Positions 4,272 through 58,809 of a DNA stretch of 64,000 nt are shown in pieces. Location of the stretch: contig JBDTQH010000028.1 in the NCBI GenBank assembly GCA_039932335.1, positions 3,728-67,727 of the forward strand. The letters are read 5' to 3'. The stretch comes from Chloroflexota bacterium (GTDB taxonomy: Bacteria > Chloroflexota > Chloroflexia > QHBQ01 > JADMIH01). The notes under the pieces were generated by a model. The model did no database searches. It had not been told where the DNA came from and saw nothing but the letters and a program-made list of their open reading frames with translations. The position numbers and the translations under genes were made by a program. Numbering within the stretch: the first letter of the stretch is position 1; the number at the start of each line of letters is the position of its first letter.

Positions 4272-6143
4272 CTAATCATCGAAGTCGAGGCCAACGATCT
4301 CCATTAGCTTGAGGGCGTTGGTGGAGGTTGCGAGGCCGGGACGCAGCTTGTAATCGAAGGTCATTTGAGGGCCGGTTGCCGAGTCGTGGATGGTTTCCGT
4401 GAAGTGCACCAGGCGGGCGGCCTCGGCTATCTGGGGTATCTCGGCCAACGTGAGGTCGTGGGTAGATACCGCTCCGAGGGCACCCTGCTTGACCAGGTAC
4501 ATTATGACTTGCCTCGCCGCGATTTGCCGTTCAGATGTGTTAGTGCCCTGTAGGATTTCGTCCAGCAGATAGAAGAGGCGCATATCGCCTTTAGAGTGTA
4601 CCGTCCGCGCCGCATCTACCACCTGCTTCAGCCGCTGCAATTCTGCCATAAAGTAGGAGACGCCGCGCGCCAGCGAGTCTTCCACCCTCATGCTCGACCA
4701 GAGGGCAAGAGGCGGCATTTGCATGGTACCGGCACAAACAGGGCCGCCCGCCTGCGCCAGCACTACATTGACGCCCATGGCCCGCAGCAGCGTGCTCTTG
4801 CCCGACATATTGGAGCCTGTAACCAGCAGGAATGTGCCGGGCGGGCCGACTTCTACGCTATTAGTGACGCGCTCATCGCCAAGCAGGGGATGGCCCAGAT
4901 CTACCGCTTGCAAGCGGTCGGCTTCGTGCTCGACCGACGGGAAGGCCCAGTCGGGATTGGCATGGGATAGTCCGCCCAGGGCTGCCAGGGCTTCGGCTTC
5001 GCCCAGAGTTTCCAGCCAGCGGCGGGCATACTTGCCGTTCTCGCGCTGCCAGCGCTCGACCGCGCCCAAAAGGTGGACATCCCAGAGGGTCAGTGCCTGG
5101 ATAGGAAAATATAACTGCGATCCCATAGGGATGCTGAACGTGGTAATGCGGTGCAGCCGCCTGAGCGCGCCATGGGCGGGTACGCCTTCGACCGTGAGGG
5201 CAGATTGCAACCGCGCCATCTCGTGCGATTGAAACTTTGCGTCCGAGAGCAGCTCGAACGAATTGGCATAGTGCTTGAAGCCCTGTTCACCCGCGCTAGC
5301 TTTGGATATGGTTCCGTAGATCTGGCGGCCTGTGGTCATTGCAAAGATGAAGTTGACCGCTGCTACAAGGAACCAGAAGGGATAGTTGATAAGGCCGAAG
5401 AGTTGGGCAAAGGCCAGCGCCCAGAGCAGGAAGACGCTTGCCACTGATGTCCAGGGCAGCCACTTGCGCTGCGCCAGCCAGGGCTTGGATTCGGCCCAGG
5501 AGAGGAAGGGCGCGGGGTCGGGCTTCTCGTCGCCCATAAGCCTGCCGCGCAGAGTTAGCTCATCGCGCAGGTCAATGAGGGGGGCAAGCTCCGTCACGGC
5601 GGATTGGCGGTCGCGCACTCTTTCGGGCGGGGCTGGGGTTTGGAGCCACCTCGCAAGGGTGGACTCGCCCATAAACGTGCCGACGGTCTCCAGAAGGTGC
5701 ATCAGGGATGCCTTGCCGAAGATGTCGAGGTCGCCCGCGTAGGGGTCGCCGGGTTCGGCGCGCACTTTATGGCGAAGGGGCAGGTCGTCCCAGCGCCGCT
5801 CCACACGCATTAGGGCTTCATCGTTCATCTTGAAGAGTTCTTCATCGCGTCTTCGGACACGTCCAACCTGGTTGTGATACCAGACGAGTACGAAGAAGCC
5901 TATGAGGAGAGCGATGCCTGCTACCCAGAGCAGCGTAATCGCTTGCACTAAGCCCCAGATGAGCGCCACCACCGCCGCAAGGAACGTCACGAGGCGGATG
6001 TTGCCGATGCGGTTCCAGCGCTCGGTCTGAAGGTCGAAGTCGCGTTTAAAGCGGGCAGCACGCTCGCGGTAAATCTCGATAGGAGTGGTTCCCGTTGGTC
6101 GGGAAGCCTGCGCTCTCTCGCCGGTTGGTTTTTCAGCAATCAT
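4272..6143 (-). CDS. Membrane-anchored MutS-like ATPase (MutS domain V, no mismatch-binding domain)
   Basis: TM helices; GHPLL, Walker A TGSNMSGKST, DSLARGVSYFMAEL, LLDEILQGTN, STHD. Confidence 0.9.
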   Translation of the reverse strand: MIAEKPTGERAQASRPTGTTPIEIYRERAARFKRDFDLQTERWNRIGNIRLVTFLAAVVALIWGLVQAITLLWVAGIALLIGFFVLVWYHNQVGRVRRRDEELFKMNDEALMRVERRWDDLPLRHKVRAEPGDPYAGDLDIFGKASLMHLLETVGTFMGESTLARWLQTPAPPERVRDRQSAVTELAPLIDLRDELTLRGRLMGDEKPDPAPFLSWAESKPWLAQRKWLPWTSVASVFLLWALAFAQLFGLINYPFWFLVAAVNFIFAMTTGRQIYGTISKASAGEQGFKHYANSFELLSDAKFQSHEMARLQSALTVEGVPAHGALRRLHRITTFSIPMGSQLYFPIQALTLWDVHLLGAVERWQRENGKYARRWLETLGEAEALAALGGLSHANPDWAFPSVEHEADRLQAVDLGHPLLGDERVTNSVEVGPPGTFLLVTGSNMSGKSTLLRAMGVNVVLAQAGGPVCAGTMQMPPLALWSSMRVEDSLARGVSYFMAELQRLKQVVDAARTVHSKGDMRLFYLLDEILQGTNTSERQIAARQVIMYLVKQGALGAVSTHDLTLAEIPQIAEAARLVHFTETIHDSATGPQMTFDYKLRPGLATSTNALKLMEIVGLDFDD

Positions 6144-6202
6144 ACTACCAGTATATCATCCGGGGCGGCGGATGGCAGACGGCAGACGGCGTTGTCAGTT
6201 AT

Positions 6203-6330
6203 ATTACGGATTCACCGCAGAGGCGCAGAGGGCGCTGAGTTACGCAGAGGTCTTTAAGGTTTGACGGGTGCTGTGGCAAGCGAGTATGCGACACATGCCG
6301 TCAGCTAACAACTGACAATGCGGTCGGCGG
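6203..6330 (+). repeat. ~120-bp dispersed repeat R, copy 1
   Basis: ATTACGGATTCACCGCAGAGGCGCAGAG...TAAGGTTTG...GTGCTGTGGC...GAGTATGCG; six copies in the window. Confidence 0.8.
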
Positions 6331-14776: not shown

Positions 14777-17251
14777 TTGAGGAGTAAATCTATGTACGTG
14801 TTTGACACAGCTATTTCCAGTGCAGTAGTTGGTGATGGAACCGGCAGAGAAAACGGCAAATCAGCGGCTACAGAAGAGAAGCCTGTGCAGGGGCCGCTCT
14901 CTCCCGAATTGCTGGACAAGATGCAGCGCTACTGGCAGGCGGCCAACTACCTCACTATCGGGCAGATATATTTGCAGGACAACCCGCTTATGCGGTATCC
15001 CCTGCGTGCTGACCAGATTAAGCCGCGCCTGCTCGGACACTGGGGCACATCACCCGGACTAAGCTTTATCTATGTGCATCTGAACAGGCTCATAAAGGAG
15101 CGAGATGCAAACATGATTTACCTGGCGGGACCGGGACATGGCGGTCCTGCACTCATTGCGAACGTCTACCTGGAGGGCACGTACACAGAGATTTACCCTG
15201 ACATCACACAGGACGTTGAAGGCATAAGGCGGTTGTTCCGGCAGTTCTCTACGCCGGGCGGCGTGCCGAGCCATGTCAGTGTGCCGACACCCGGCTCTAT
15301 ACATGAGGGCGGGGAGCTTGGCTATGTGCTTACTCATGCGTTTGGGGCAGCATTTGATAATCCGGATTTGATCGCGGTGGCAGTAGTGGGCGATGGTGAG
15401 GCCGAGACGGGACCGCTCAGCGGCTCATGGCAAGGGGTCAGCTTCCTCAATCCGGCTCGCGATGGGGCTGTGCTGCCAATTCTGCACCTGAACGGATATA
15501 AGATCGCCAACCCTACTGTGCTGGCGAGAGCGAGCGACGAAGATGTGCGCGCGTTGTTCCAGGGTCATGGATACGATATGCACTTCGTGGAAGGCGATGA
15601 CCCGGCGGAGGTGCACCAGAAGTTCGCGGCCACTCTGGATAGCTGTTACGACAAGATCCGGGCGATCCAGGAAGATGCTCGCGCTAACGGTGTTCATGAT
15701 CGACCGCGCTGGCCCATGATCGTGCTGCGTACACCCAAAGGCTGGACAGGACCGGACGTAGTAGACGGCCTGCCGGTGGAGGGCACATTCCGCTCGCACC
15801 AGGTGCCGCTCGACAATGTCCGGAAGAATAAAGAGCATCTTGCCGAGCTTGAAAAATGGCTTACCAGCTATGGACCGGACGAGCTGTTTGACCGCGAAGG
15901 CAGGCTAAAGCCGGAGTTGGCCGAGCTGGCTCCAGAGGGCGACCGGCGCATGGGAGCCAATCCACACGCCAACGGCGGGAAGCTGCTCGTTGATCTCGCC
16001 ATACCGAACTTTGAGGACTATGCGTTCGCGGTGGAAAATCCGGCTACCGAGCGCGTTGAGTCGACGCGCCAACTGGGCAAGATGTTGCGCGATATTTATG
16101 TGGCGAACCGCGAGGAGGCCAATTTCCGCCTCTTCTGCCCGGACGAGACCAATTCCAACAGGCTGGGTAATGTGTTCGAGGTAGAGAATCGCTGCTTCGT
16201 GGGCAAGACGATCTCCATCGACGACCATGTATCACCTGACGGGCGCGTGATGGAGATATTGAGCGAGCATAACTGCGAAGGCTGGCTTGAAGGCTATCTG
16301 CTCACCGGACGTCACGGCATGTTCGCTACGTATGAGGCGTTCGCTATGGTGGCAGCATCGATGATAGTGCAGCACACCAAGTGGATGCAGGAGGCGAGGA
16401 GCCTGGCCTGGCGCGACTCGATTGCCTCGCTCAACATACTGCTGACGTCCACATCGTGGCGCAACGACCACAACGGGTTCAGTCACCAGGGGCCGGGCCT
16501 TATCGATGTGATGATTTCAAAGAGGGGCACGGTAACACGTATCTATCTACCGCCGGATGCCAACTGCCTGCTGTCGGTAGCCGACCACTGCCTGCGCAGC
16601 CGTAATTATGTCAATCTGATCGTGCAGGACAAGCAGCCACAGTTGCAATACCTGTCGATGGATGAAGCCATAGAGCATTGCGCAAAGGGCGCTTCGAGAT
16701 GGAACTGGGCATCTAACGACCAGGGCTTCGAGCCGGATGTTGTGCTGGCGTGCGCGGGCGATATCCCCACGATGGAGACAATTGCGGCGGCATGGTGGCT
16801 GCGCAATAACATCCCTGAAATAAAAGTGCGCGTAGTCAACATCGTGGACCTCATGACGCTCTTCCCACCGTCTATACACCCTCACGGCATGAGCGAAACG
16901 GCGTTTGTGAACCTGTTTACCGCCGACAGACCGGTGGTCTTTGCGTTCCACGGCTACCAGCGCGCCATACACCAGCTTGTGCATGGACGTGCCAATCCTG
17001 AGCGGTTCCATGTCAGAGGGTTCAACGAGCAGGGCACAACCACAACGCCGTTCGACATGGTGGTGCTGAATGACATGAGCCGATATCACCTCGCGATAGA
17101 CGCCATGAACTGCGCTACCCGACTGCGCGCCAGCACAGCACCCCTTATAGACGAATGCCGCACGCTGATTCAACGCGCCGTGGCATATTCCCGCGAGCAC
17201 TTCGAGGATATGCCTGAAATAAGCAACTGGGTTTGGACGCGGGATAAGTAA
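14777..17251 (+). CDS. xfp: Phosphoketolase (XFP family); start uncertain (14777, 14792 or later)
   Basis: [40 protein letters not shown] motif, [25 protein letters not shown]. Confidence 0.96.
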
Positions 17252-17329: not shown

Positions 17330-17381
17330 CGTTTGTTACAATGATGCATAGAAAACAGAGCTGATGAGAGTAATTGAAATA

Positions 17382-17559
17382 GTAAATGTTCAGATTCAGG
17401 GCGGAGCAACTTGACATGTCGCTAACGGAAGACCCACCGCCCCCCGCTTCGCTCATACCCCTCCCACATGTGGGAGGGGAGCCTAAAAAGGGAAGAATGG
17501 GGGACACCCCCATACCCAGTCATGGGCTGCGCCCCTGCACCCCTAGTCTGAGCTCTTAC
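17382..17559. mobile_element. IS66-like MITE copy B
   Basis: GTAAATGTTCAGA...TCTGAGCTCTTAC; flanks TTGAAATA/CTGAAGCA (5/8 match, transitions only). Confidence 0.75.
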
Positions 17560-19785: not shown

Positions 19786-20113
19786 GAATACCGGGCTAAC
19801 AAAATAATGTCAGTGCCGCCGCCTCCCCTGGCCATTGTCATTCTGAACAGAGTGAAGAATCTCGTCCCCTTCTCTTCTCTTGGGATTGCTCATAAAGGGA
19901 ACATAGTCCTGTTTTGCGAGATTCTTCACTTCGCTCTGTACCGTACTAACAAGGAATTGGCAGGAAAGCGCACACCACCAAGCAGTGTTATTGTGAGCGT
20001 AGCGAAGAATCCGTTCGGGTAGAAATTAGTATGGAGGTTGATTCTTCACTGCGTTCAGAATGACAAGGTAAACAGACACGCTTACCTGCCACTTCTTTGT
20101 TAGCGACGTACTG
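19786..20113. mobile_element. Nested MITE family 2: truncated copy (19786-19935) abutting a complete copy (19936-20113)
   Basis: 19786-19935 is the reverse complement of ~3925-4079. The inner element has TIR CTGTACCGTACTAACAAGGAATTGGCAGG / CCTGCCACTTCTTTGTTAGCGACGTACTG. Confidence 0.7.
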
Positions 20114-20131
20114 AATATGACACAACTTAAT

Positions 20132-20166
20132 AAAGAAAGCCCGCCGGAATATGGCGGGCTTTCTTT
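20132..20166. terminator. Bidirectional intrinsic terminator
   Basis: AAAGAAAGCCCGCC...GGCGGGCTTTCTTT between convergent genes. Confidence 0.8.
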
Positions 20167-20181
20167 GTTTGCAGTGAGCGA

Positions 20182-22977
20182 TTACCTGCTTTGCAGATCG
20201 CAATCGGTCATGAAGGTGTTGGCAACGATCTTCGAGGTCTGACCTCGTGTAGCGTTGTTGTCGGGGCGGAAGTAGGGCAGGTTGCCTGCACTGCACGGCT
20301 CACCCACGCTGCCGCAGGGATAGCCGCTCATGATGGAGCGGGAGGCAAGCCTCTGCACAAAGTCGTAGAAGGCATGTCCGACCGGCACATCCTCGAATAT
20401 CTGGGCACCTGCAGGGTCATTGAAGCCCGCGGTGTTCGCGACAATCTTGGATAGCTGTCCCCTGGTAGCGTCGGCGTAAGGCCGGAAGTAGGGCAGGTTG
20501 CCTGCACCACACGGCTCACCTACGCTGCCGCAGGGATAGCCGCTCATGATGTTGCGGGAAGCCAACCTCTGGATGAAGTCGTAGAAGGTAGAGCCTGGCG
20601 CAACATCCTCAAAGGCCTGTGAGACTGGCGGCTCGTTGAAGCCTGCCGAGTTGGAAACGATCTTCGCAAGCTGACCGCGTGTGACGTTGTTGCCTGGCCT
20701 GAAGGTGTTGTCAGGGTAGCCATTGATGATGCCTTTGCAGGCGAGGCACTGTATGTAGCTGTGGAAGGTGCTGCCCGCCGGTACGTCGGAGAACTCAATC
20801 GCGCATACGGTTGGCGTCGATGTGGGCGATCCGGCAGTAGCGGTCGCGGGAACAGGGGTGTCTGTGGCACCAGGGACAGAGGTGCTGGTTGGGACAACAG
20901 GGGTGTCGGTGGCCAGCGGGTTCTGCGTATTGGTGGGAACCGGCGGCACTGTATTGGTTGGCGGAACGGACGTGTTCGTTGAAGTGGCGACAACCGTGTT
21001 AGTAGGCGATACGGATGTGCTTGTGGGCACAGGGCTACCGCAGGCAGGTAAGGTGAACGACAATTGCTTGCCGCTGATATTGGGTACGACAGTGTTGCAG
21101 GAGTACTGCTTGTAGGTCGTTGCGTCTTTCTGTGCGCCTATGGTCGCGCTGCTGCCGTTCTTCGCGGTAGCCATCGTGCCGTAGATGATGTCGAACTGGC
21201 CTGTCGTTTCATACAAGCGTAGCTCGTAGTTGGCGTCTGAGTTGGCAGCACAGGTGGTGGGACCGCTGTACGCGCATGTGCGCCACTCGATATTGAAGAT
21301 ACGGTTTGGTGCCGTTCCGCTTATCGAGGTAAAGATACCCTTACCTGCCGGTGCTGTGATCTGATCGTCCCAGTATGGCATGATCACATTGGTTGGGATA
21401 GTGGTAGAAGGCAAGCAGTCGTTGGTCCAGTCAATGTTAGCGCTGGAGAACTGAGCATTGCCGTTCGGTCCAAGATCCACACTTGTAAACGACTGGCCGT
21501 ACAGGTTGAAGGCAAAGGGCAGAGCGATATTGGTTGTATTATCGTCTGTGTGGTTGCCGATGTCTGTCGTGCCAGGTACAATTGTGCCCGTGCTTTCTAC
21601 GATATTGTAGTTTGAACAAATCGTAGGAACGAGCGTGGGCGTGTTTGTGTTGGTGGGAGTATTGGTTGCGAGCGGGGTGTTCGTTACAGTGCGTGTGGGA
21701 GTACTGGTTGGTGGCGTGCCTGTAACGGTGCGCGTGGCTGTGTTGGTAGGTAAGGGCGTACCACCCTGAGAGGCATCATACTGCATGCTGGTGTTGGAGC
21801 CGTCGTATGTCACAGGACTGCCACCCACGTTGTAGCCTCCCCATGCATACAGGATACCGTTTAGCTGGCTGCTTGCGTAGTTCCTCCTCGCTCGCAGCAT
21901 CGGTGCAAAGCTGCTCCACGCATTCGCTTGCGGGTCGTAGATGTATGCGCTCGTGTCGGGCGTTGTGTACCCACCACCTGCTACCACTATCTTCCCTGAT
22001 ATCTCGTAGCTGGTGCTGCTGTCGTATGCCCATGCTCCCATGTCCCCACGTGCGGTTGGCAGGCTGGCTACCGTGCTCCACACAGGACTGCCCGCACTGG
22101 GGTCCAGTCGCTCTACCACGCTCACCGAGCTTACCGTCGGTGATACACCACCCGCTATGATGTCTCCACCTATCGCGTAGATGTACCCGTCCAGGGCTGC
22201 TCCTGCTATGTATCCCCTCGCTACGCTCAGGTTAGCTCCCGCGAGCTGGGTCCACTTGGAGCCGGTGGGGGCTGCGGGGTCGAAGCGCCAGGTGTCTGCG
22301 TACATTGCAGAGCTTGGTTTAGAGGAGTATCCTCCAAAAATGTACAGCTTGTTGTTCAGTACAGCATACCCACCCGGTACTCTCGGTGGGTTGGCAGGCC
22401 ACCCGTCTGCTGGGGGGAGACTCACTATTGTGTCGGATGCGGGGTTGTACACCCGCACTGTTGTGATGACTGTGCTGTCGGTGCTCGAGCCGCCAATGGC
22501 ATAGATGTTATCTGACATACCGTTGTTGAGGGTAGCCACCGCCATGTTAGCCACATAGCGAGAGCCGTACGGCCCGGAGTCTACCTGCGCGTTCTTGCGA
22601 GTGAAAGAGGTTGGATTTGCGGGATCGTACTCCCATATCCAGCTTGATCCCATGTCATCGCCGTCTGCTCGGTGACGTCCCCCCAGTATGTAGATCTTGC
22701 CGTTGGCAGGGTAGGCGGCAGCACCCGCTCGCTTGAGCTTGAGTGGTGCATTGGGAGCCTGCTGGTTGCCGAAGCCGAGGCTGACGGTGGGCAGGAGAGG
22801 CAGGTCGGACCATGCACCGCTTGGCACATAGCCCGGGTCTGATACCACTTTGCTCTCTTTCTGTGCTCCGTTGTTACCGCCAGGGGAACTGCTGGAAGTA
22901 ACGACGATAAGGAGGGTAACGAGCATAACGGGAATGAGCACGGAGATAACCAGGGAATATAGAAAGCGCCTTGTCAT
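20182..22977 (-). CDS. Surface protein: Kelch beta-propeller + Thr/Pro linker + conserved beta module + SLH x3
   Basis: N-terminal TM/signal; Kelch repeats (KIYILGG, IYAIGG, KLYIFGG, YIYAIGG, VVAGG, LYAWGG); VPGTTDIGNHTDD module; FRPGNNVTRGQLAKIV SLH repeats. Confidence 0.9.
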   Translation of the reverse strand: MTRRFLYSLVISVLIPVMLVTLLIVVTSSSSPGGNNGAQKESKVVSDPGYVPSGAWSDLPLLPTVSLGFGNQQAPNAPLKLKRAGAAAYPANGKIYILGGRHRADGDDMGSSWIWEYDPANPTSFTRKNAQVDSGPYGSRYVANMAVATLNNGMSDNIYAIGGSSTDSTVITTVRVYNPASDTIVSLPPADGWPANPPRVPGGYAVLNNKLYIFGGYSSKPSSAMYADTWRFDPAAPTGSKWTQLAGANLSVARGYIAGAALDGYIYAIGGDIIAGGVSPTVSSVSVVERLDPSAGSPVWSTVASLPTARGDMGAWAYDSSTSYEISGKIVVAGGGYTTPDTSAYIYDPQANAWSSFAPMLRARRNYASSQLNGILYAWGGYNVGGSPVTYDGSNTSMQYDASQGGTPLPTNTATRTVTGTPPTSTPTRTVTNTPLATNTPTNTNTPTLVPTICSNYNIVESTGTIVPGTTDIGNHTDDNTTNIALPFAFNLYGQSFTSVDLGPNGNAQFSSANIDWTNDCLPSTTIPTNVIMPYWDDQITAPAGKGIFTSISGTAPNRIFNIEWRTCAYSGPTTCAANSDANYELRLYETTGQFDIIYGTMATAKNGSSATIGAQKDATTYKQYSCNTVVPNISGKQLSFTLPACGSPVPTSTSVSPTNTVVATSTNTSVPPTNTVPPVPTNTQNPLATDTPVVPTSTSVPGATDTPVPATATAGSPTSTPTVCAIEFSDVPAGSTFHSYIQCLACKGIINGYPDNTFRPGNNVTRGQLAKIVSNSAGFNEPPVSQAFEDVAPGSTFYDFIQRLASRNIMSGYPCGSVGEPCGAGNLPYFRPYADATRGQLSKIVANTAGFNDPAGAQIFEDVPVGHAFYDFVQRLASRSIMSGYPCGSVGEPCSAGNLPYFRPDNNATRGQTSKIVANTFMTDCDLQSR

Positions 22978-23004
22978 TGTTTTTGTTTCTCCTCACCACT
23001 ACAG

Positions 23005-23442
23005 TTAGAGTGGGTTCACCTGGCTCCCAGGGTTGTAAGATGCACAGCCGCAGTAGCCGCCGCCGCCACAGTTGCAATCGCAGCAGGTCCAGTAGCCGCC
23101 GCCTTGAGCAGACGTCCAGCAACCTGTTGTATACCAGTTGTAGACGACCACGCACTGGTACACGGTTCCGCCCGATTTGTGCTCGAAGCAGCCGCCGCCG
23201 CGGCAGCCGGAGGGCAGGTTGACACCGTCAGTATTGCAATAAGGGCCGGGAGGTGAACACTGAGGTGCTGCGGGTACAAGCGGTCCGGCAGAGGCGGTAT
23301 CTGAACGGTTAGCGAGGGCAGGACCGAGCATGAGAGCGGCGATACCCGAAGCCACAGCGCCGCCTGCCCGCTGGACAAACGCACGCCTGTTCATGCCACG
23401 CGCCAATGCCTCGCTCCATACCCGTATCTTCTGGTCTATCAT
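23005..23442 (-). CDS. Tat-signal, 12-Cys small protein resembling a shortened methylamine dehydrogenase light chain (MauA-like)
   Basis: RBS AAGGAG; NRRAFV twin-Arg leader; mature part YCNTDG, CRGG, GCWTS, WTCCDC, YCGC; 27 nt upstream of the Kelch-SLH gene. The CDS is solid; MauA relatedness is by eye. Confidence 0.75.
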   Translation of the reverse strand: MIDQKIRVWSEALARGMNRRAFVQRAGGAVASGIAALMLGPALANRSDTASAGPLVPAAPQCSPPGPYCNTDGVNLPSGCRGGGCFEHKSGGTVYQCVVVYNWYTTGCWTSAQGGGYWTCCDCNCGGGGYCGCASYNPGSQVNPL

Positions 23443-23722
23443 TTATCACTCCTTGCATAGAACATGAATTGCGATTTACGAAGAGGCCACAGCGAAATAG
23501 GGTCTGCAGGTAGATTGGCATGCAGACACCAGGCTCGCACTTATGAGCTATAAACCACGCACTATGGGAAGATGCGCCTTTCGGCTCGGCTGGAGAGGCA
23601 GAGCTAATGGGGACCTGACTGTGGCCTTGTCAGATCAGCTACACAGAATCGGTACGTACTTGCGTGACGCAACTATATCATTACTGCCGGTCTGAGTCAA
23701 TAGTATTGTGAGACATATATCA

Positions 23723-23769
23723 AATAAAGTAAAAAGCAGCCCCTTGCGGAACTGCCGTTTACTTTATTT
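23723..23769 (-). terminator. Terminator after the DEAD-box helicase
   Basis: AAATAAAGTAAAAAGCAG...CTGCCGTTTACTTTATTT. Confidence 0.55.
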
Positions 23770-23798
23770 TGTGCTTGTATGTGCGGTCTAAGCGTGAC

Positions 23799-25160
23799 CT
23801 AAGCTGACGCCCTGCTCGCGTTGCGGGAGCGGCCATCATTGCGCGAGGGAGCACTGGAGGAGCGGCGCGAGTCACTTTGTGGGCGGCTGCCAGGACGCGC
23901 TGAACTAAATCGCGATGACGGAGCGTACTGCTCGCGCGGAGCAGACTGGTGAGTAGCCGGTTCTGCTACAGGACGCGGGCGGCGGCGCTGAGGCTCTCGC
24001 GGCGGGCGGGCGAACTCGGTGTTGCGGGTGGGTCCAGACTTGTTATAGTCGAAGCCCTCTACCGTGCGGCGCTCTACCCTCGCGCCAAGTACACGCTCGA
24101 TGGAACGAACCATGTCGGCATCCTCGTTCGTGATGAGGGTAAATGCATCACCAGTTTTGGCGGCGCGGCCTGTGCGGCCTATGCGGTGGGTGTAGGCGTC
24201 GGCGGTATCAGGTACATCATAGTTGATGACGTGTGAGATACGTGTCACATCTATGCCTCTGGCCGCGATGTCGGTGGCAACCAGGATCTGGTATTTGCCG
24301 TCACGGAAGCCGTCCATCGCGGCCTGACGCCTGTTCTGCGAAAGGTTGCCCTGCAAGGAGGTAACGCTGTAGCCTTCTTTTTCGAGGTTTTCGCCCAGGC
24401 GCTTGGCGCGGTGCTTGGTGCGAGCGAAGATAAGCACCGATTCGGTGTCGGTATGCTTCAGCAACTCCAACAGAAGTGCGGTCTTCAAATGCTGCGCGAC
24501 AGGATAGAGGGCGTGCGAGACTGTACCCACAGGCTCAGTTGTGCCGACCTGGACGGTGACGGGATTGCGGAGAATCTCGTGGGCAAGGTGACGAATATCA
24601 GCGGGCATAGTCGCCGAGAAGAGCAGCGTCTGACGCTCAGCAGGTATGCTTCGCATAATCCTGCGGACGTCAGGCAAGAAGCCCATATCGAACATGTTGT
24701 CGGCCTCATCAAGCACGAGCACTTCGAGATCTGCCATGCTGATATTGCCCCTTGAGATGAGGTCTAGCAGGCGGCCGGGACAGGCCACGACGATATCAAC
24801 GCCTCTGCGTATCCTGGCGATCTGGGGCTGGATGCCCACGCCGCCGTAAATGGTCACGCTGCGGAGACCTGTCTGCTTGCCGAGCGCGCTTATGGCCTCA
24901 TGTGTCTGCTCTGCCAGCTCGCGCGTGGGCGAGAGGATGAGGGCACGCACGCGGCCGCGTGGACCGCTTATCAAGCGCTGAAGAATAGGTAGAACAAAGG
25001 CAGCGGTCTTGCCGGTGCCTGTCTGGGCAAGGCCCATCACATCACGCCCCTGTAAAACAGGCGGGATGGCCTGAGCCTGGATCGGCGTGGGCACGGTATA
25101 GCCGTATGCCTGCACGCCTGCCGCGATGCGCGGATCTAAATTGAACGAGTTAAAAGTCAC
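23799..25160 (-). CDS. DEAD-box RNA helicase (RhlE-like)
   Basis: Q motif PTPIQ, AQTGTGKT, PTRELA, DEAD, SAT, ARGID, HRIGRTGR; basic C-terminal tail. Confidence 0.95.
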   Translation of the reverse strand: MTFNSFNLDPRIAAGVQAYGYTVPTPIQAQAIPPVLQGRDVMGLAQTGTGKTAAFVLPILQRLISGPRGRVRALILSPTRELAEQTHEAISALGKQTGLRSVTIYGGVGIQPQIARIRRGVDIVVACPGRLLDLISRGNISMADLEVLVLDEADNMFDMGFLPDVRRIMRSIPAERQTLLFSATMPADIRHLAHEILRNPVTVQVGTTEPVGTVSHALYPVAQHLKTALLLELLKHTDTESVLIFARTKHRAKRLGENLEKEGYSVTSLQGNLSQNRRQAAMDGFRDGKYQILVATDIAARGIDVTRISHVINYDVPDTADAYTHRIGRTGRAAKTGDAFTLITNEDADMVRSIERVLGARVERRTVEGFDYNKSGPTRNTEFARPPREPQRRRPRPVAEPATHQSAPREQYAPSSRFSSARPGSRPQSDSRRSSSAPSRNDGRSRNASRASA

Positions 25161-25316: not shown

Positions 25317-25330
25317 GCAGCGAGCATATG

Positions 25331-25508
25331 GTAAATGTTCAGACTTAGGGTGGAACAACCCGGCATCTCGGTCAGGGAAGACCCTCCCCCAACCCCTCCC
25401 ACGCGTGGGAGGGGAGTAATTAAGTAGAAGAGGAGAATGGGGGACACCCCCACACCCCCGTCATGGGCTTCTCCCCTGCACCCCGCTACCCCTATTCTGG
25501 ACACTTAC
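25331..25508. mobile_element. IS66-like MITE copy C
   Basis: GTAAATGTTCAGA...TCTGGACACTTAC; flanks AGCATATG/AGCATACG (7/8 match). Confidence 0.85.
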
Positions 25509-25585
25509 AGCATACGATACAGTAAGCACCGTGATACAAACAACCATAATGGGAAGCTCCAAGAGGTACTATCAATGGTACAATC

Positions 25586-53783: not shown

Positions 53784-54401
53784 CTAGCGGCGGACTGCCT
53801 CCTGGACTACGACATTTTCCACCCCTTCTTCGCCCGCTGCGGGCGGATCGAACTTACCGGTCTTCAACTCGCGATAATAAAGATCCAGGCCGCCTTTGTT
53901 ATTGACGAGGCCCTTCGCCCTCACCAGGCCTTTCTCATCAAGCATGAAGAGGAAGGGGGTGACGCGAACCTTGTACTTATCGAGCAGGTTGTCATCGGGC
54001 GTATATGGCACTACAGGGAGGGTTGCGCCGGTCTCAGAGACGAAGCGGTTGCTCTCTTCTTCAGAAGCGGCGTTGAGCCAGAGTACGGAAACGTCGCTAT
54101 GCTGCCTGGCCCAATCATGAAGCTGAGGCAGCAAGAGGCGGCAAGGGCTGCAATGCGGAGAGCCAAACAGGAGTGCTACGGGTTTACCTTTGTAGCTGCT
54201 CAACTGCTGCACCTGACCAAACTGGTCTGTGAGCTTGAAATCGGGGGCACGAACCCCACGCTCTAATCCATCGCGCGATACACCTTCCGCGGTTCCGAGG
54301 TACATGATGCCGAGCTGACGATAAAGTAGTAATACCAGTACGCCAAGACCAATCACCAATAGCCATAACACTATATAGCTTACAAGCCAGATACCTTCCA
54401 T
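53784..54401 (-). CDS. MauD-like membrane-anchored thioredoxin (methylamine dehydrogenase accessory family)
   Basis: SYIVLWLLV...LLLYRQLGIMY...GL..G..APDF, FGSPHCSPCRLLLP, YKVRVTPF, VRAKGLVN; RBS AGGAG before ATG 54401. Confidence 0.82.
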   Translation of the reverse strand: MEGIWLVSYIVLWLLVIGLGVLVLLLYRQLGIMYLGTAEGVSRDGLERGVRAPDFKLTDQFGQVQQLSSYKGKPVALLFGSPHCSPCRLLLPQLHDWARQHSDVSVLWLNAASEEESNRFVSETGATLPVVPYTPDDNLLDKYKVRVTPFLFMLDEKGLVRAKGLVNNKGGLDLYYRELKTGKFDPPAAGEEGVENVVVQEAVRR

Positions 54402-54609
54402 GGGACTCCTATGATATGACGGTAGACCGTGGGCGGTGGAACGCTGCGTGAAATCCAATGGGATTACCGGCCAGGGTCAAGCGCCGTTTAGATAATTGTA
54501 TGTTTCTCTTATACCCGATTATGCCCGCGTTGGACAAGGACGACCAATTATGCGTCGGGCTTGAATTGCCGGTAGTATCTTGTTTATTTGTTCCAGTACT
54601 GTGGTTGAT

Positions 54610-54669: not shown

Positions 54670-57600
54670 CTAGTTGTTGGGTACAGAAGCCTTTACAGGC
54701 TGCTGTGGGGTGTCGCAGTTAGGGAAGAATGTGTTAGCCACTATCTTCGATGTCTGCCCCCTCGATAGCGTTGCGTTAGGTCGGAAGTAAGGCCTGCTCT
54801 GGCTGTCGCACGGCTCGGTCGGATCTACTCCGCACGGATAGCCGCTCATGACGTTAGGCCTGTTCATCAGCAAGCGCTCCACATAGACGTGGAATGTTGA
54901 GCCAGGAGGCACGTCGGTGAAGGTGAATGTGGCAGGATCAGGATCATTGAAGCCTGCTGCATTCGATACGATCTTGGTTAGCTGTCCGCGTGTAGCGGTG
55001 GCACTCGGCCTGAAGTAAGGCTTGTTGCCTGGCAATACGCACGGCTCGTTGGGATCAACACCGCACGGGTAGCCACCCATTACACCACGGCTGGCCAACC
55101 GCTCAATGTAGTCGTAGAAGGTAGAACCAGGGACAACGTCCTCAAAGGTCTGGCCGCTGACAGGGTCAGAGAAGCCAGCCGACTGGGAGACGATCTTCGA
55201 CAACTGCCCACGCGTCACAGAGTTGGACGGTCGGAAGTAAGGATCGCTGTTAGGGTTACAAGGCTCGCCTGTACCACCACACGGATAACCGTTGATGATG
55301 TTGCGGCAAGCAAGGCACTTGATGAAGGGGTAGAACGTGTTGCCGGGCAGCACGTCAGCGAACTCAATTGCGCAATGTGTCGGTGTAGCTGTAGGCGATC
55401 CTGGTGTAGATGTAGCGCCTGTTGTAACCGTAGCGCCGACTGTGTTAGTGGCACCAGGTGTACCAGGCGTGTTTGTAGCGCCAACCGTGTTAGTGGCAGC
55501 AGGCGCTGTACTGGTGGCAGTTGTGCCGACAGTGTTGGTTGCACCCGGTGTTGGTGTGTTGCAAGTAGCACCTGGGGAGTAGATTTCCATGGAGGGATCA
55601 GGGGCTGTTGGCGCATAGCCGCCTGCCATGTAGATCTTGGTGCCGTCCGTGTCCGCCGGGAAGTTACGCCTCGCCAGCGTGAACGAAGGGCCTGTGCTCC
55701 ATGAGTTGGTTGCCGGGTCGTATATATCCACCTCTGTGCTAGGGTTAGGCGCATCTCGCCCGCCTCCCAGCACCCACATCTTGCCACCATAAGCTACCGC
55801 CCTTGTTTCTGCTGTTGCTCTCGGTATGTTGGTGATGGCCGTGATCGTGTTGGTGGCCGGATCGTACTTGTACGAGTTGTCGCTGTCCAACAGCGTGGTG
55901 CCGTCCCATATAGAGCCGCCACCGGTGTAGATCATGCCGCCGATCGCTGCGGTCGGGATATAGCCAAGCTGCACAGGCAGTACGGTCGACTTGAGCGTCC
56001 AGCGCGAGCCTGCCGCTGCTGCCGGGTCGAACTCCCATATCTGGTCGGACATGCCGACGTTGATCTCGAAGCCGCCAAGCACATAGAGCTTGTTGTTCAC
56101 GACCGCTACTCCACCAGGGAGTGTTGTTGTGCCCGGGGTCCACGGATCGGAGGAGAGAGTGGTCATTGTGTCGGTAGCAGGGTTGTACGTCTTGACCTCT
56201 GATGTGCCGCTTGTACCGCCACCGGCAGAGCCGCCCACCATAACGATAACGGGAGTGCCGCTCATAGTGAGGACAGCGCCCTGCATGTTGGAGGTCTGGT
56301 TATCGGAGAAGGAGGCGGTTTTCTGCACCCAGGTATCGGTGCCGGGAGTGTACTCAAGAGGCTGCATCTGAGCGAGGTTAGGATCACCGTCGCCTGTGCG
56401 GCCGCCCATCGAGTAGAACTTACCGTTGGCGGGGAAGTAGACACCCCATGCCCGCACGATACCGGCAGTGAGGGGAGCGCCTGCTGTCCAGCCACCTGCT
56501 GATGGTGCGCATGTTGGGGAAGCAGCGGGAGTGTTGGTCGGCCCAGGTGTGTTGGTAGGTCCGGCAGTACCGCAAGCAGGCTGAGTGAATGTCAGTTGCT
56601 TGCCGGATAGGCCGGCTACTGCCGTGTCGCAGGAGAACGACGTGTAGTTGGTTCCGTCTTTCTGCACACCTATGGTAGCGCCGCTGCCGGTTTGTGCGGA
56701 AGCCATAGTGCCATAGATGATGTCGAACTGCCTGGTCGCTGAATTCTCATACAGACGCAACTCGTAGTTGGCGTCAGAGTTGGCAGCACAGGTGGTGGCT
56801 CCGGCATACGCGCATGTGCGCCACTCGATATTGAAGATACGGTTTGGTGCCGTTCCGCTTATCGAGGTAAAGATACCCTTACCTGCCGGTGCTGTAATCT
56901 GGTCGTCCCAGTAAGGCATGATCGCATAGGTGCTGAGAGTTGCCGAGGGCAAGCACTCATTGGTATAGGCGCTGCTGTTGGTGACGAACTGAGCGTTGCC
57001 GTTAGGCCCGAGGTTTACACTGTTGTATGTCTGGTCGTACAGGTTGAAGGCGAACGGCAGAGCGATATTAGTTGTAAGATCGTCTGTGTGGTTGCCGATG
57101 TCTGTCGTGCCGGGCACGATTGTGCCTGTCGACTGGGCAATGCTATATGGGGCACTTGCACCGCAAGCCGTTGCCGTGGGTGATGGTGTGTTTGTTGGTG
57201 TGCGTGTTTGTGTAGCTGTGGGAGGTGTGCCTGTGACTGTGGGTGTAGGTGTGCCACCACCGCCGGCGAACGTTCCCATCCTGGCGTAGTGGCGTGTGCC
57301 CGAGCGGTTGTCTGTCCAGCTGGCGACGATAGCGGCGTTGCTGCCGTTATATCCGCCAACGTGTACAGCCTGGTAGTCGCCGTGGAAACCGGCCGCAGGG
57401 TAGGTTACGCTGCTTAGCTGGAAGGGCGCTGTCCAGGTCACACCACGGTCGGTGGACTGTACATAGTAGTGTGCCAGCGTGCTCGGGGCACCGGCCTGGC
57501 TGCTCGAATAGGTGACGTGAACGGTATGGTCACGCGAAACGGTGATCCACGGCATATACTGGGCTACAGCGGCGTTGGGGTCGTTGTAGACAAAGCTAGG

Positions 57601-58809
57601 TGTAGACCATGTCGCGCCGTTATCTGTGGATCGTGTGAAGGCTGTCGCAGCACCGGTGCCCTGCGGCGTGCCAGGTGTGCGGAACTTCAGCCATACAAAA
57701 TAGAGGCTGCCGTCAGCCGGATCGGCACCAAGCGTGCCTTGCGGGCTCCAGCGGAAGCCTGCTGGGCCGTTCGAGTTGAACGCAACCGACTCACCACGTG
57801 TATCGGTTGCTGCGGTCCCGGAGATGGGGAATGTTACACCACCGTCGGTGGAGCGTGCCCACTTATAGCGGTTGTTTGTGCCCGAGGTTGGATTGCCACC
57901 GCAGCAAATTGCTTCCATCCAGCCGTGTACAACAACGCCACCGGGCCCGAAGCCCATTGAACCGAACTGGCGGTTGCCCAGCGTGCTGAAAGCCGTGGGG
58001 TTGGAATGCACGAACGGAGGGCTCCAGGTAACGCCGGAGTCCGTTGTCCAGCGGGTTGCTGTGCTGTTGAAGCTGCCGGAACCTGCCGAGTCAAAGAGGG
58101 TCTGCGTCATGTACAGACGGCCGTAGAACGGGCTGGAAGGCTCCTGGTCGGCCCAGAAATACTGGCGGTCGTTGAAGAAGCCGTTAGAGCTGATGTTGCT
58201 GGACAGAGCTGTCCAGGTCACACCACGGTCGGTGGAGCGTCCTGCGCCGATAACTGCCGAGCCACCGGAAGGGTTCAAGCTGGAGCTCAAAGCCCAGTCC
58301 TGGTTAGGAGAGGTAGGCAGCCATGCATTGACGGTGTCGCCATAACCGGAAGGCTGTGCGGGGTTGCGGCTCTGCCATGTAGCGCCACCATCGGAGGTGT
58401 TGTCTATCGGCACGTTACCGCTGACCAGTGCAAAGTTCGGATCGGAGGGGTGCATCGAAGCTGCCGGTTCGTTGGCGCTGATGCTCACCGATGCATTGCG
58501 CTCAGGACCCCATGTAATAGTGGTGTTGGGGTTTTGAGGCTTTGCGCTAGGTACAAAATTATCGCGGGGGGGATCTTGCGGATGGACAAGGCCCATGTTG
58601 ACAAGGGTTCCCATGGATACAGCTTTGAGGCCCGCTGAAAGCTGGTCGTAGCCGTCAGTGGTTGTCTTAGCCTGTTCTTTACCCTGCTGGCCGGCCGCCT
58701 GTGAAGGTACGCCTGCGGGGTAGGAAGCGCTGGCGGCGTTGGTCATCCCAAGGATGGCCAGTGCAACCAGCATGGCTGTTGAAAGTATCAGCCAGGTGCG
58801 CCTATTCAT
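54670..58809 (-). CDS. Large surface protein: BNR/Asp-box propeller + conserved beta module + Kelch propeller + SLH x3
   Basis: Signal peptide; SxDxGxTW Asp boxes; VPGTTDIGNHTDD module; Kelch (FYSMGG, KLYVLGG, IYTGGG, MWVLGG, IYMAGG); SLH repeats with YPCG..EPC loops. Confidence 0.9.
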   Translation of the reverse strand: MNRRTWLILSTAMLVALAILGMTNAASASYPAGVPSQAAGQQGKEQAKTTTDGYDQLSAGLKAVSMGTLVNMGLVHPQDPPRDNFVPSAKPQNPNTTITWGPERNASVSISANEPAASMHPSDPNFALVSGNVPIDNTSDGGATWQSRNPAQPSGYGDTVNAWLPTSPNQDWALSSSLNPSGGSAVIGAGRSTDRGVTWTALSSNISSNGFFNDRQYFWADQEPSSPFYGRLYMTQTLFDSAGSGSFNSTATRWTTDSGVTWSPPFVHSNPTAFSTLGNRQFGSMGFGPGGVVVHGWMEAICCGGNPTSGTNNRYKWARSTDGGVTFPISGTAATDTRGESVAFNSNGPAGFRWSPQGTLGADPADGSLYFVWLKFRTPGTPQGTGAATAFTRSTDNGATWSTPSFVYNDPNAAVAQYMPWITVSRDHTVHVTYSSSQAGAPSTLAHYYVQSTDRGVTWTAPFQLSSVTYPAAGFHGDYQAVHVGGYNGSNAAIVASWTDNRSGTRHYARMGTFAGGGGTPTPTVTGTPPTATQTRTPTNTPSPTATACGASAPYSIAQSTGTIVPGTTDIGNHTDDLTTNIALPFAFNLYDQTYNSVNLGPNGNAQFVTNSSAYTNECLPSATLSTYAIMPYWDDQITAPAGKGIFTSISGTAPNRIFNIEWRTCAYAGATTCAANSDANYELRLYENSATRQFDIIYGTMASAQTGSGATIGVQKDGTNYTSFSCDTAVAGLSGKQLTFTQPACGTAGPTNTPGPTNTPAASPTCAPSAGGWTAGAPLTAGIVRAWGVYFPANGKFYSMGGRTGDGDPNLAQMQPLEYTPGTDTWVQKTASFSDNQTSNMQGAVLTMSGTPVIVMVGGSAGGGTSGTSEVKTYNPATDTMTTLSSDPWTPGTTTLPGGVAVVNNKLYVLGGFEINVGMSDQIWEFDPAAAAGSRWTLKSTVLPVQLGYIPTAAIGGMIYTGGGSIWDGTTLLDSDNSYKYDPATNTITAITNIPRATAETRAVAYGGKMWVLGGGRDAPNPSTEVDIYDPATNSWSTGPSFTLARRNFPADTDGTKIYMAGGYAPTAPDPSMEIYSPGATCNTPTPGATNTVGTTATSTAPAATNTVGATNTPGTPGATNTVGATVTTGATSTPGSPTATPTHCAIEFADVLPGNTFYPFIKCLACRNIINGYPCGGTGEPCNPNSDPYFRPSNSVTRGQLSKIVSQSAGFSDPVSGQTFEDVVPGSTFYDYIERLASRGVMGGYPCGVDPNEPCVLPGNKPYFRPSATATRGQLTKIVSNAAGFNDPDPATFTFTDVPPGSTFHVYVERLLMNRPNVMSGYPCGVDPTEPCDSQSRPYFRPNATLSRGQTSKIVANTFFPNCDTPQQPVKASVPNN

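Follow-up and report, generated by a model that had tools for sequence, protein, structure and literature searches.

A Twelve-Cysteine Protein with a MauA-Type Leader Encoded Next to a Kelch-SLH Surface Protein in Chloroflexia

The Two-Gene Locus

Contig JBDTQH010000028.1 of a Chloroflexota bacterium (assembly GCA_039932335.1) contains, within the 64,000-nucleotide stretch analyzed here (the window), a gene for a small cysteine-rich protein followed by a gene for a large surface protein. The small open reading frame (ORF) at 23005-23442 (minus strand) encodes 145 amino acids (aa), and the ORF at 20182-22977 (minus strand) encodes a 931-aa protein with Kelch repeats and SLH domains. A sequence-only reading of the window had described the former as an ORF with a ribosome-binding site (RBS) and a twin-arginine leader, 27 nt upstream of a Kelch-SLH gene, and this description holds for both ORFs. 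It had further proposed that the small protein is a shortened relative of MauA, the quinone-bearing light chain of methylamine dehydrogenase (MADH), and that the Kelch propeller replaces the heavy chain MauB.

Both genes are preceded by a Shine-Dalgarno sequence. For the small ORF this is AAGGAG, 7 nt ahead of the start codon; for the Kelch gene the RBS is GGTGAGGAG, located in the 27-nt spacer (22978..23004, minus strand) that separates its ATG from the stop codon of the preceding gene. A promoter-like sequence, TTGACT-17 nt-TATAGT with a TG extension (23672..23700, minus strand; 10 of 12 consensus matches), is found about 230 nt upstream of the small ORF; it is a consensus match only. The region holds three such sites against 2.1 expected from shuffles. 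Farther upstream, a terminator-like hairpin detected by a motif scan (23735..23756, minus strand) lies 3′ of an ORF from the ORF list that was labeled by eye as a DEAD-box helicase (23799-25160) and parts this gene from the operon. Immediately beyond the Kelch stop codon, an inverted repeat rich in GC (20133..20167, minus strand), noticed by eye and uncalled by the terminator scan, is a possible terminator. As the promoter-like site follows the helicase hairpin and the inverted repeat follows the Kelch stop codon, the two genes look like an autonomous, self-contained bicistronic operon. An Rfam search of the 5′ region (23400-23800) returned no family at E ≤ 1.

The Small Protein and Its Family

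Residues 1-52 of the small protein (23287..23442, minus strand) form a leader with an amphipathic n-region, an RR-x-F motif, a hydrophobic core and an A-x-A-type site. The twin-arginine motif reads N-R-R-A-F-V, and all 28 homologues in the alignment keep RR-x-F. The A-S-A at residue 52, selected by eye, is the likely cleavage site. The leader scored 13.2 bits against TIGR01409, below the cut-off of 16.7, and TatC is present in the genome from which the window comes (the host genome); the protein is a putative substrate of the twin-arginine translocation (Tat) pathway. An alternative annotation of the small protein as an anti-sigma factor was dropped, since only about 20 residues precede the hydrophobic stretch and the 200-aa gene found upstream of it encodes a redoxin, not a sigma factor.

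The 93-aa mature domain (23008..23286, minus strand) is predicted to be beta-rich. It contains the 12 cysteines (residues 62, 69, 80, 85, 97, 108, 120, 121, 123, 125, 131 and 133) and three tryptophans (103, 109 and 118) counted in the sequence-only reading, and the motifs that had been set against those of MauA (YCNTDG, CRGG, GCWTS, TCCDC and YCGC) all occur in that order. The segment homologous to Trp108 of MauA is absent. Among 130 near-full-length homologous rows, each of the 12 cysteines is kept in at least 128, Trp109 in 129, Trp118 in 127, Asp122, which is next to the Cys-Cys pair, in all 130, and His88 in 120, while D72 and Trp103 are kept in 32 and 20 rows, respectively; since rows were chosen for shared words or motifs, the counts for the core motifs are somewhat circular and inflated. 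The expectation that the tryptophan and aspartate residues are conserved is therefore borne out for Trp109, Trp118 and Asp122, but not for D72, the proposed equivalent of Asp32 in MauA.

The small protein falls outside all families of Pfam and NCBIfam. Sequence searches yielded 115 homologues of 110-173 aa at E ≤ 0.01 among 196 candidates, none of which has a Pfam family on record, and an exhaustive phmmer search of 1.84 billion representatives matched 30 cluster representatives, with no credible fused form among them. A search with the distant member P0141 recovered P0141 alone. Searching the PDB sequences with the single protein gave no match, and a profile search gave Tat-leader matches to FdhA and a sulfide dehydrogenase and otherwise noise. 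In genome contigs, 61 copies of the gene were located in 46 arrays across 43 loci, all of which belong to Chloroflexia/Chloroflexota metagenome-assembled genomes except one weak Actinomycetota locus. In a 151-genome sample of the class (counts that include the unpublished genomes G013, G037 and G097), the family is present in three families of one order, namely in 21 of 24 genomes of f1, 5 of 5 of f2 and 9 of 9 of f3, and in 0 of 112 genomes of other families. Judging from these searches, the small protein is a member of a genuine family that lacks annotation and is limited to one order of Chloroflexia. The genome of the window has one copy and other genomes have up to six; seven of the 46 arrays are tandem arrays of 2-5 diverged copies, with mature parts 61-98% identical. 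Full-text literature searching found no description of the family or of the arrangement and brought up a single relevant work, a preprint on MauE, leaving aside the supplementary phylum-distribution figures of the MauE preprint cited below, which were not seen and may bear on Chloroflexota.

Comparison with MauA

MauA is a Tat-leader protein. When the family was compared with 42 MauA proteins by hhalign, the leaders alone aligned, over 35-37 columns, with probabilities of 91.5% and 93.5% (E = 8e-7 and 2e-7). Since Tat leaders resemble each other, two controls were run. In the first, an ungapped comparison of the 16 columns before the RR gave z = 2.9 against column shuffles (p = 0.004). In the second, a hidden Markov model (HMM) of the first 45 residues of the family was run against the 42 MauA proteins together with 60,793 stop-to-stop ORFs of the host genome (60,835 in total), including the other Tat substrates of this genome; after the self match, ranks 2-7 were all MauA, and MauA accounted for 18 of the top 40. 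The reverse search with a MauA-leader HMM was weaker than the forward one, with the small ORF placed 24th of 60,793 (E = 4.2), and an HMM of the MauA n-region only placed it 2,311th. Taken at the level of sequence, these results support a leader that is specifically MauA-like beyond a generic Tat signal.

The mature domain behaves differently from the leader. The MADH light-chain family PF02975 (Me-amine-dh_L) gave a score of 180 bits for MauA of Paracoccus denitrificans as a positive control, whereas the small protein had no Pfam match to it at E ≤ 1, and a six-frame search of the host genome with PF02975 found no match at E ≤ 10. The hhalign comparison of the mature part with MauA gave a probability of 0.1% (E = 0.48), a profile Smith-Waterman alignment gave z = 1.3, a score that 11% of shuffles attained, and the HMM scores of real sequences were no better than those of shuffles. 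MauA sequences ranked last among genome decoys. The profile comparison with the MADH light-chain family that the sequence-only reading had put forward thus revealed no similarity above shuffles or decoys, and its notion of a MauA-like subunit is supported for the leader but not for the mature domain; similarity of the mature domain to MauA is not demonstrable from sequence profiles. With four distant members added and a low mact setting, hhalign extended the leader match collinearly into the mature part, much as the sequence-only reading had drawn it, pairing GCW with the quinone Trp, CC with Cys77/78 and C-x-C with Cys86/88, with low confidence in this part. An AF2 model of the mature domain (pLDDT 84.5, pTM 0.74) showed five strands and no clear structural match, while that of the whole precursor was poor (pLDDT 54), and Foldseek with the mature-domain model found nothing. 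The 93-residue mature domain would represent a new beta-rich domain, presumably held by six disulfides.

Helper Genes of the MauD, MauE and MauF Types

To characterize the gene neighborhoods, ORFs were called in the 43 loci and labeled by BLASTP against Pfam-checked examples. In 27 of 43 evaluable arrays, the gene immediately upstream of the small one encodes a redoxin of about 200 aa, and MauE (PF07291) comes before the redoxin in 5 of 22. On the downstream side, a Kelch homologue follows directly in 32 of 42 evaluable arrays and a 200-aa membrane protein homologous to MauF in 7 of 42, and one or the other of these types is found downstream in 39 of 42. The linkage to MauD, MauE and Kelch-SLH genes anticipated in the sequence-only reading was therefore recovered, with MauF as an addition.

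Three cluster redoxins were tested, and all had the MauD model TIGR02661 as the top NCBIfam hit (64-75 bits, nearly full length). Weak matches of the redoxins to SCO1/SenC were also seen. A membrane-anchored redoxin is also encoded in the window, about 30 kb upstream of the small gene and on the same strand (53784..54458, minus strand); it is 79% identical to the redoxin preceding the small gene in locus L009, has TIGR02661 as its top NCBIfam match (66.8 bits) and aligns with P. denitrificans MauD over 187 aa at 28% identity (E = 3e-18). As all of these scores are under the equivalog cut-off of 188.6, the redoxins are MauD-like rather than MauD equivalogs. The MauE proteins scored over the PF07291 cut-off, with 82-95 bits in L035, L020 and L023 and 104.6 bits for the copy on contig C34 of the host genome; C-H-C and C-G-C motifs were seen. 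The 200-aa membrane protein matched P. denitrificans MauF by BLASTP (E = 3e-14, 29% over 150 aa) and DsbD_2 at 25.4 bits, against a cut-off of 24.9. Its gene is single-copy and occurs in 35 of 38 genomes of the order versus 1 of 112 outside. In f2 and f3, every one of the 12 genomes that have it carries it immediately after the small gene, and in the genus of the window it lies on another contig in 22 of 22 genomes in which both were located. We know of no role described for MauF. A tblastn search of a MauE protein against plasmids gave no match.

The host genome keeps the whole helper set in dispersed form, with the MauD-like redoxin in the window and MauE and the MauF-like protein on C34. 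Directly upstream of the redoxin gene, the window carries a gene for a 1379-aa Kelch/SLH paralogue (54670..58809, minus strand). In L004, L009, L031, L038 and L040, a large SLH surface protein is followed in order by the redoxin, the small gene and the Kelch gene, and the surface protein is Kelch-bearing in L004 and L009. In the window, the genes keep this order and a common strand, but the redoxin and the small gene are separated by ordinary-looking genes (UvdE, Na/H exchanger, VWA, LysM/YkuD, GH5 and HTH-TPR) that span about 30 kb; this interruption of an otherwise conserved order suggests an insertion or rearrangement inside the cluster.

Two MauE genes were observed in the host genome, on contigs C8 (L045) and C34 (L044). 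The C34 copy is followed by the gene of the MauF-like membrane protein. The C8 copy follows a redoxin gene and lies between pgk-like and tpiA-like genes; this redoxin matches ResA, not MauD, and the pair looks like a housekeeping disulfide system. In L035, genes for an extracytoplasmic function (ECF) sigma factor and a zf-HC2 anti-sigma factor (4552-6221) are located just upstream of the MauE-MauD-like-small-MauF-like cluster, and this pair may be the regulator of that cluster.

A recent preprint (bioRxiv 10.64898/2026.03.05.709764) describes MauE as a DsbB-like oxidase of general function that has a CXC active site and occurs in numerous species lacking MauA, interprets MauD as its DsbA-like partner, and states that MADH contains six disulfide bonds that need MauD. 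Given that MauE is a general oxidase often encountered without MauA, the helper genes argue for a protein with many disulfides, not for a quinone.

The Kelch-SLH Protein

Pfam assigned both Kelch_1 (4.8e-26) and SLH (3.4e-25, in three stretches) to the 931-aa protein, over the Pfam cut-offs. A hydrophobic anchor or signal at residues 1-30 precedes a Kelch beta-propeller at approximately residues 55-410 (21748..22815, minus strand; Kelch_1/6/2/4 and Beta-prop_ATRN-LZTR1). Three SLH domains, which are cell-wall anchors, occupy approximately residues 725-931 (20185..20805, minus strand). Between the propeller and the SLH domains, and flanked by Thr/Pro-rich linkers on either side, there is a middle domain at approximately residues 455-650 (21028..21615, minus strand), for which no Pfam family was found at E ≤ 10. 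For this domain, 17 tblastn matches with 30-100% identity were listed on 11 contigs, including the Kelch gene's own copy, and it appears to be a common module of the surface proteins of this organism.

The best PDB sequences for residues 154-409 (approximate limits) were KLHL20 (E = 2e-19), KEAP1 (1e-14) and the designed SAKe6. By sequence, the propeller is of the six-bladed KLHL/KEAP1 Kelch type and is not MauB; the MauB heavy-chain family PF06433 had no match at E ≤ 1 in the host genome, which is 94% complete. The propeller and the SLH tether proposed in the sequence-only reading are therefore present, while a MauB-type heavy chain is not among the proteins of this genome as searched.

The small gene and the Kelch gene also duplicate as a unit, for example in L015 (98% and 92% identity) and between L005 and L006 (83% and 75%). 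Within genomes, the co-divergence of small and Kelch paralogues is weak, with Spearman coefficients of 0.60 (p 0.065) and 0.18 in two genomes. A complex prediction from alignments of Kelch residues 45-412 and the mature small protein gave 0.00 in two runs, for which controls were not run, and this result counts neither for nor against binding.

Search for a Quinone-Forming System

MauG is the di-haem enzyme that makes the tryptophan tryptophylquinone (TTQ) of MADH. MauG-family genes (PF03150) were found in just 6 of 40 genomes of the order (57-94% complete; the sample includes the unpublished genomes G013 and G037) and were not found in the near-complete G019, G006 and G025, each of which has 4-5 copies of the small gene. 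The host genome has two PF03150 copies, on contigs other than that of the operon. One CCP_MauG match in this genome (C21:43817-44347) has an in-frame TAA inside the match and may be a broken copy. Across the 43 loci, no haem, flavin, cupredoxin or radical-SAM gene recurs, nor does amicyanin or another acceptor; apart from the neighbors counted above, no family occurs in more than 7 loci, except for a cluster of 11 loci taken as opposite-strand ORFs. Pfam analysis of the genes flanking the MauE-D-small-F clusters found no propeller, haem enzyme or flavin enzyme. The small protein is thus probably not a canonical TTQ enzyme, and a MauG-independent quinone in it is possible but unlikely.

Proposed Function and Alternatives

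The interpretation that we favor, at about an even chance, is that the small protein is a Tat-leader, six-disulfide protein with MauE/D/F-type maturation, which in this genus is probably the partner of the SLH-anchored Kelch propeller. In this genus, the small gene stands before Kelch-SLH surface genes, and its product shares its leader type and the MauE/D/F module with MauA. We regard the small protein as a binding or structural subunit lacking a quinone, and not as the catalytic subunit of a TTQ enzyme. In the proposed sequence of events, the precursor would be exported by Tat and its leader cut at the A-x-A site. The MauD-like redoxin would introduce the disulfides of the 12 cysteines and would be re-oxidized by MauE, a quinone-linked DsbB analogue, and the MauF homologue would also take part in maturation. 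The folded small protein would then bind the Kelch propeller and be displayed on the wall via the SLH domains.

Relative to the mau cluster of P. denitrificans plasmid 1 (mauF-B-E-D-A-amicyanin-J-G), the similarities are the long twin-arginine leader with a conserved n-region, the 12 cysteines, the adjacent MauD-type redoxin, MauE and MauF-type membrane protein, and a beta-propeller gene in the cluster. The differences are as follows: the mature domain has 93 residues instead of 131 and matches neither PF02975 nor the MauA profile, MauG is missing from most genomes and amicyanin is absent, the neighboring propeller is a six-bladed Kelch with SLH anchors unlike MauB, the small gene occurs in tandem arrays, and the host is an order of Chloroflexia and not of Pseudomonadota. 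The KLHL/KEAP1 six-bladed propellers, which are protein- or peptide-binding modules, provide the best PDB sequence matches to the Kelch domain; unlike them, the Kelch domain here is extracytoplasmic, forms one polypeptide with the middle domain and the three SLH domains, and is paired with a secreted protein of 12 Cys. What is new is that a MauA-type precursor and MauDEF occur in another phylum, with another cargo domain and another propeller and with no MauG.

Several points weigh against the non-quinone, Kelch-partner interpretation. The genes, the family, the similarity of the leader, the synteny of the helper genes, the lack of MauB and, in most genomes, of MauG, and the dissimilarity of the mature domain were observed directly; we infer the disulfides, cleavage site, Tat use, Kelch binding and function, of which the disulfides, cleavage and Tat dependence are predictions from sequence, and the proposed binding of the small protein to the Kelch propeller on the cell surface is drawn from gene order. 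In f2 and f3, the small gene sits with MauE/D/F and no adjacent Kelch gene was seen in the fetched loci except L030; therefore, Kelch is not a family-wide partner. Up to five diverged copies precede a single Kelch gene, which misfits a simple 1:1 subunit. As MauE is a generalist, its linkage alone says little. A protein-language-model search placed PF02975 first among named families, with this family assigned to 18 of the 30 nearest clusters of the whole protein (best 0.96) and a value of 0.75 for the mature part alone, which the tool itself graded a lead only. Among the tied best structural rows was the light chain of aromatic amine dehydrogenase (PDB 2agl chain D); this light-chain family, named beforehand, fell among 80 of 48,161 chains, a placement that is suggestive and not proof. 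Moreover, two invariant tryptophans and an invariant aspartate beside the Cys-Cys pair are what a quinone site would need.

Of the other explanations, the one that survives best, with a modest share of our confidence, is that the small protein is secreted as a free effector with a disulfide knot (antimicrobial, signaling or adhesive, for instance) that uses the Mau-type export and folding apparatus, with the Kelch-SLH protein being co-regulated or serving as a receptor or anchor. The tandem arrays of diverged copies, the absence of fused forms among the representatives of the exhaustive search, the Kelch-less MauE, MauD, small and MauF clusters (L019, L020, L023, L025 and L035) and the ECF sigma/anti-sigma pair of L035 are consistent with such a product. 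It is disfavored by the 27-nt coupling to the Kelch gene in the window, by the frequency of Kelch genes downstream of the arrays and their duplication together with the small gene, and by the lack of similarity to known toxin, bacteriocin or lectin families in Pfam, NCBIfam and PDB.

Somewhat less probable, and in our view doubtful, is that the small protein is a shortened MauA descendant with a Trp-derived quinone (Cys-Trp or Trp109-Trp118) formed without MauG, and that it is the catalytic part of a dehydrogenase on the cell surface whose heavy chain is the Kelch propeller. The specific version in which a truncated member of the MauA lineage carries a Cys-Trp or Trp109-Trp118 quinone and is Kelch-docked at the surface is rated slightly lower still. 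The MauA-specific leader, the MauD/E/F-like helper set, a cysteine number equal to that of MauA, the near-invariant Trp109, Trp118 and Asp122, the language-model matches and the low-confidence collinear extension of the leader alignment all speak for this descent. A precedent for a short quinone-bearing subunit is given by quinohaemoprotein amine dehydrogenase, whose gamma subunit is small and Cys-rich, contains a Cys-Trp quinone and sits on a beta-propeller subunit. This gamma subunit, however, needs a radical-SAM enzyme and a flavoprotein encoded nearby, and its leader is not Tat, whereas neither of these two genes recurs in the 43 small-gene loci. Together with the patchy occurrence of MauG, the mature domain without similarity to MauA above composition, the poorly conserved D72, the missing flavoprotein, haem protein and cupredoxin genes, the protein-binding six-blade type of the Kelch domain and the wall-anchored location with no evident electron acceptor argue against a quinoprotein. 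If it were true, the small protein would be the first quinoprotein of Chloroflexia, of a new class and with a new MauG-independent route to its cofactor.

Tat export is typical of cofactor-bearing proteins, and a further explanation is that the cysteines bind metal (Cu or an Fe-S cluster), with Tat exporting the cofactor-loaded protein and the MauD-like and DsbD_2-like MauF proteins keeping the thiols reduced; the CC-D-C-x-C and C-G-C clusters, the conserved His88 and Asp122, and the weak SCO1/SenC and marginal DsbD_2 matches mentioned above would fit. This explanation is improbable, considering that MauA itself combines a Tat leader with six disulfides and the same helpers, that the preprint describes MadH disulfides that need MauD and MauE as an oxidase, that AF2 gives a confident compact beta fold without a cofactor, and that no known metal-cluster motif family was matched.

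Leaders of the MauA type, MauD, MauE and MauF appear to make up a portable kit for export and oxidative folding that is untied to MADH; in this distant phylum, the same leader type and three helpers would act on another domain with 12 Cys. One of the helpers may recognize the conserved n-region of the leader, and MauF would gain a second substrate family to study. In addition, the Kelch-SLH surface proteins, which are abundant in soil Chloroflexia, gain a candidate small partner, and an unannotated family is defined.

Surroundings of the Operon

Among public sequencing runs, 10 DNA holders (rhizosphere or soil metagenomes) and no RNA holder were listed. Short intergenic elements of about 70-310 bp flank the operon (approximately 19795-20065, 17380-17520 and 25330-25510) and are highly repeated in the host genome, with 268, 189 and 258 blastn matches at E ≤ 1e-5, respectively; they look like dispersed repeats of the MITE/REP type (miniature inverted-repeat transposable elements or repetitive extragenic palindromes). 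The 356 bp upstream of the small gene are unique in the genome, unlike these repeats. Beyond the Kelch gene, an 824-aa ORF at 14777-17251 is phosphoketolase-like by eye.

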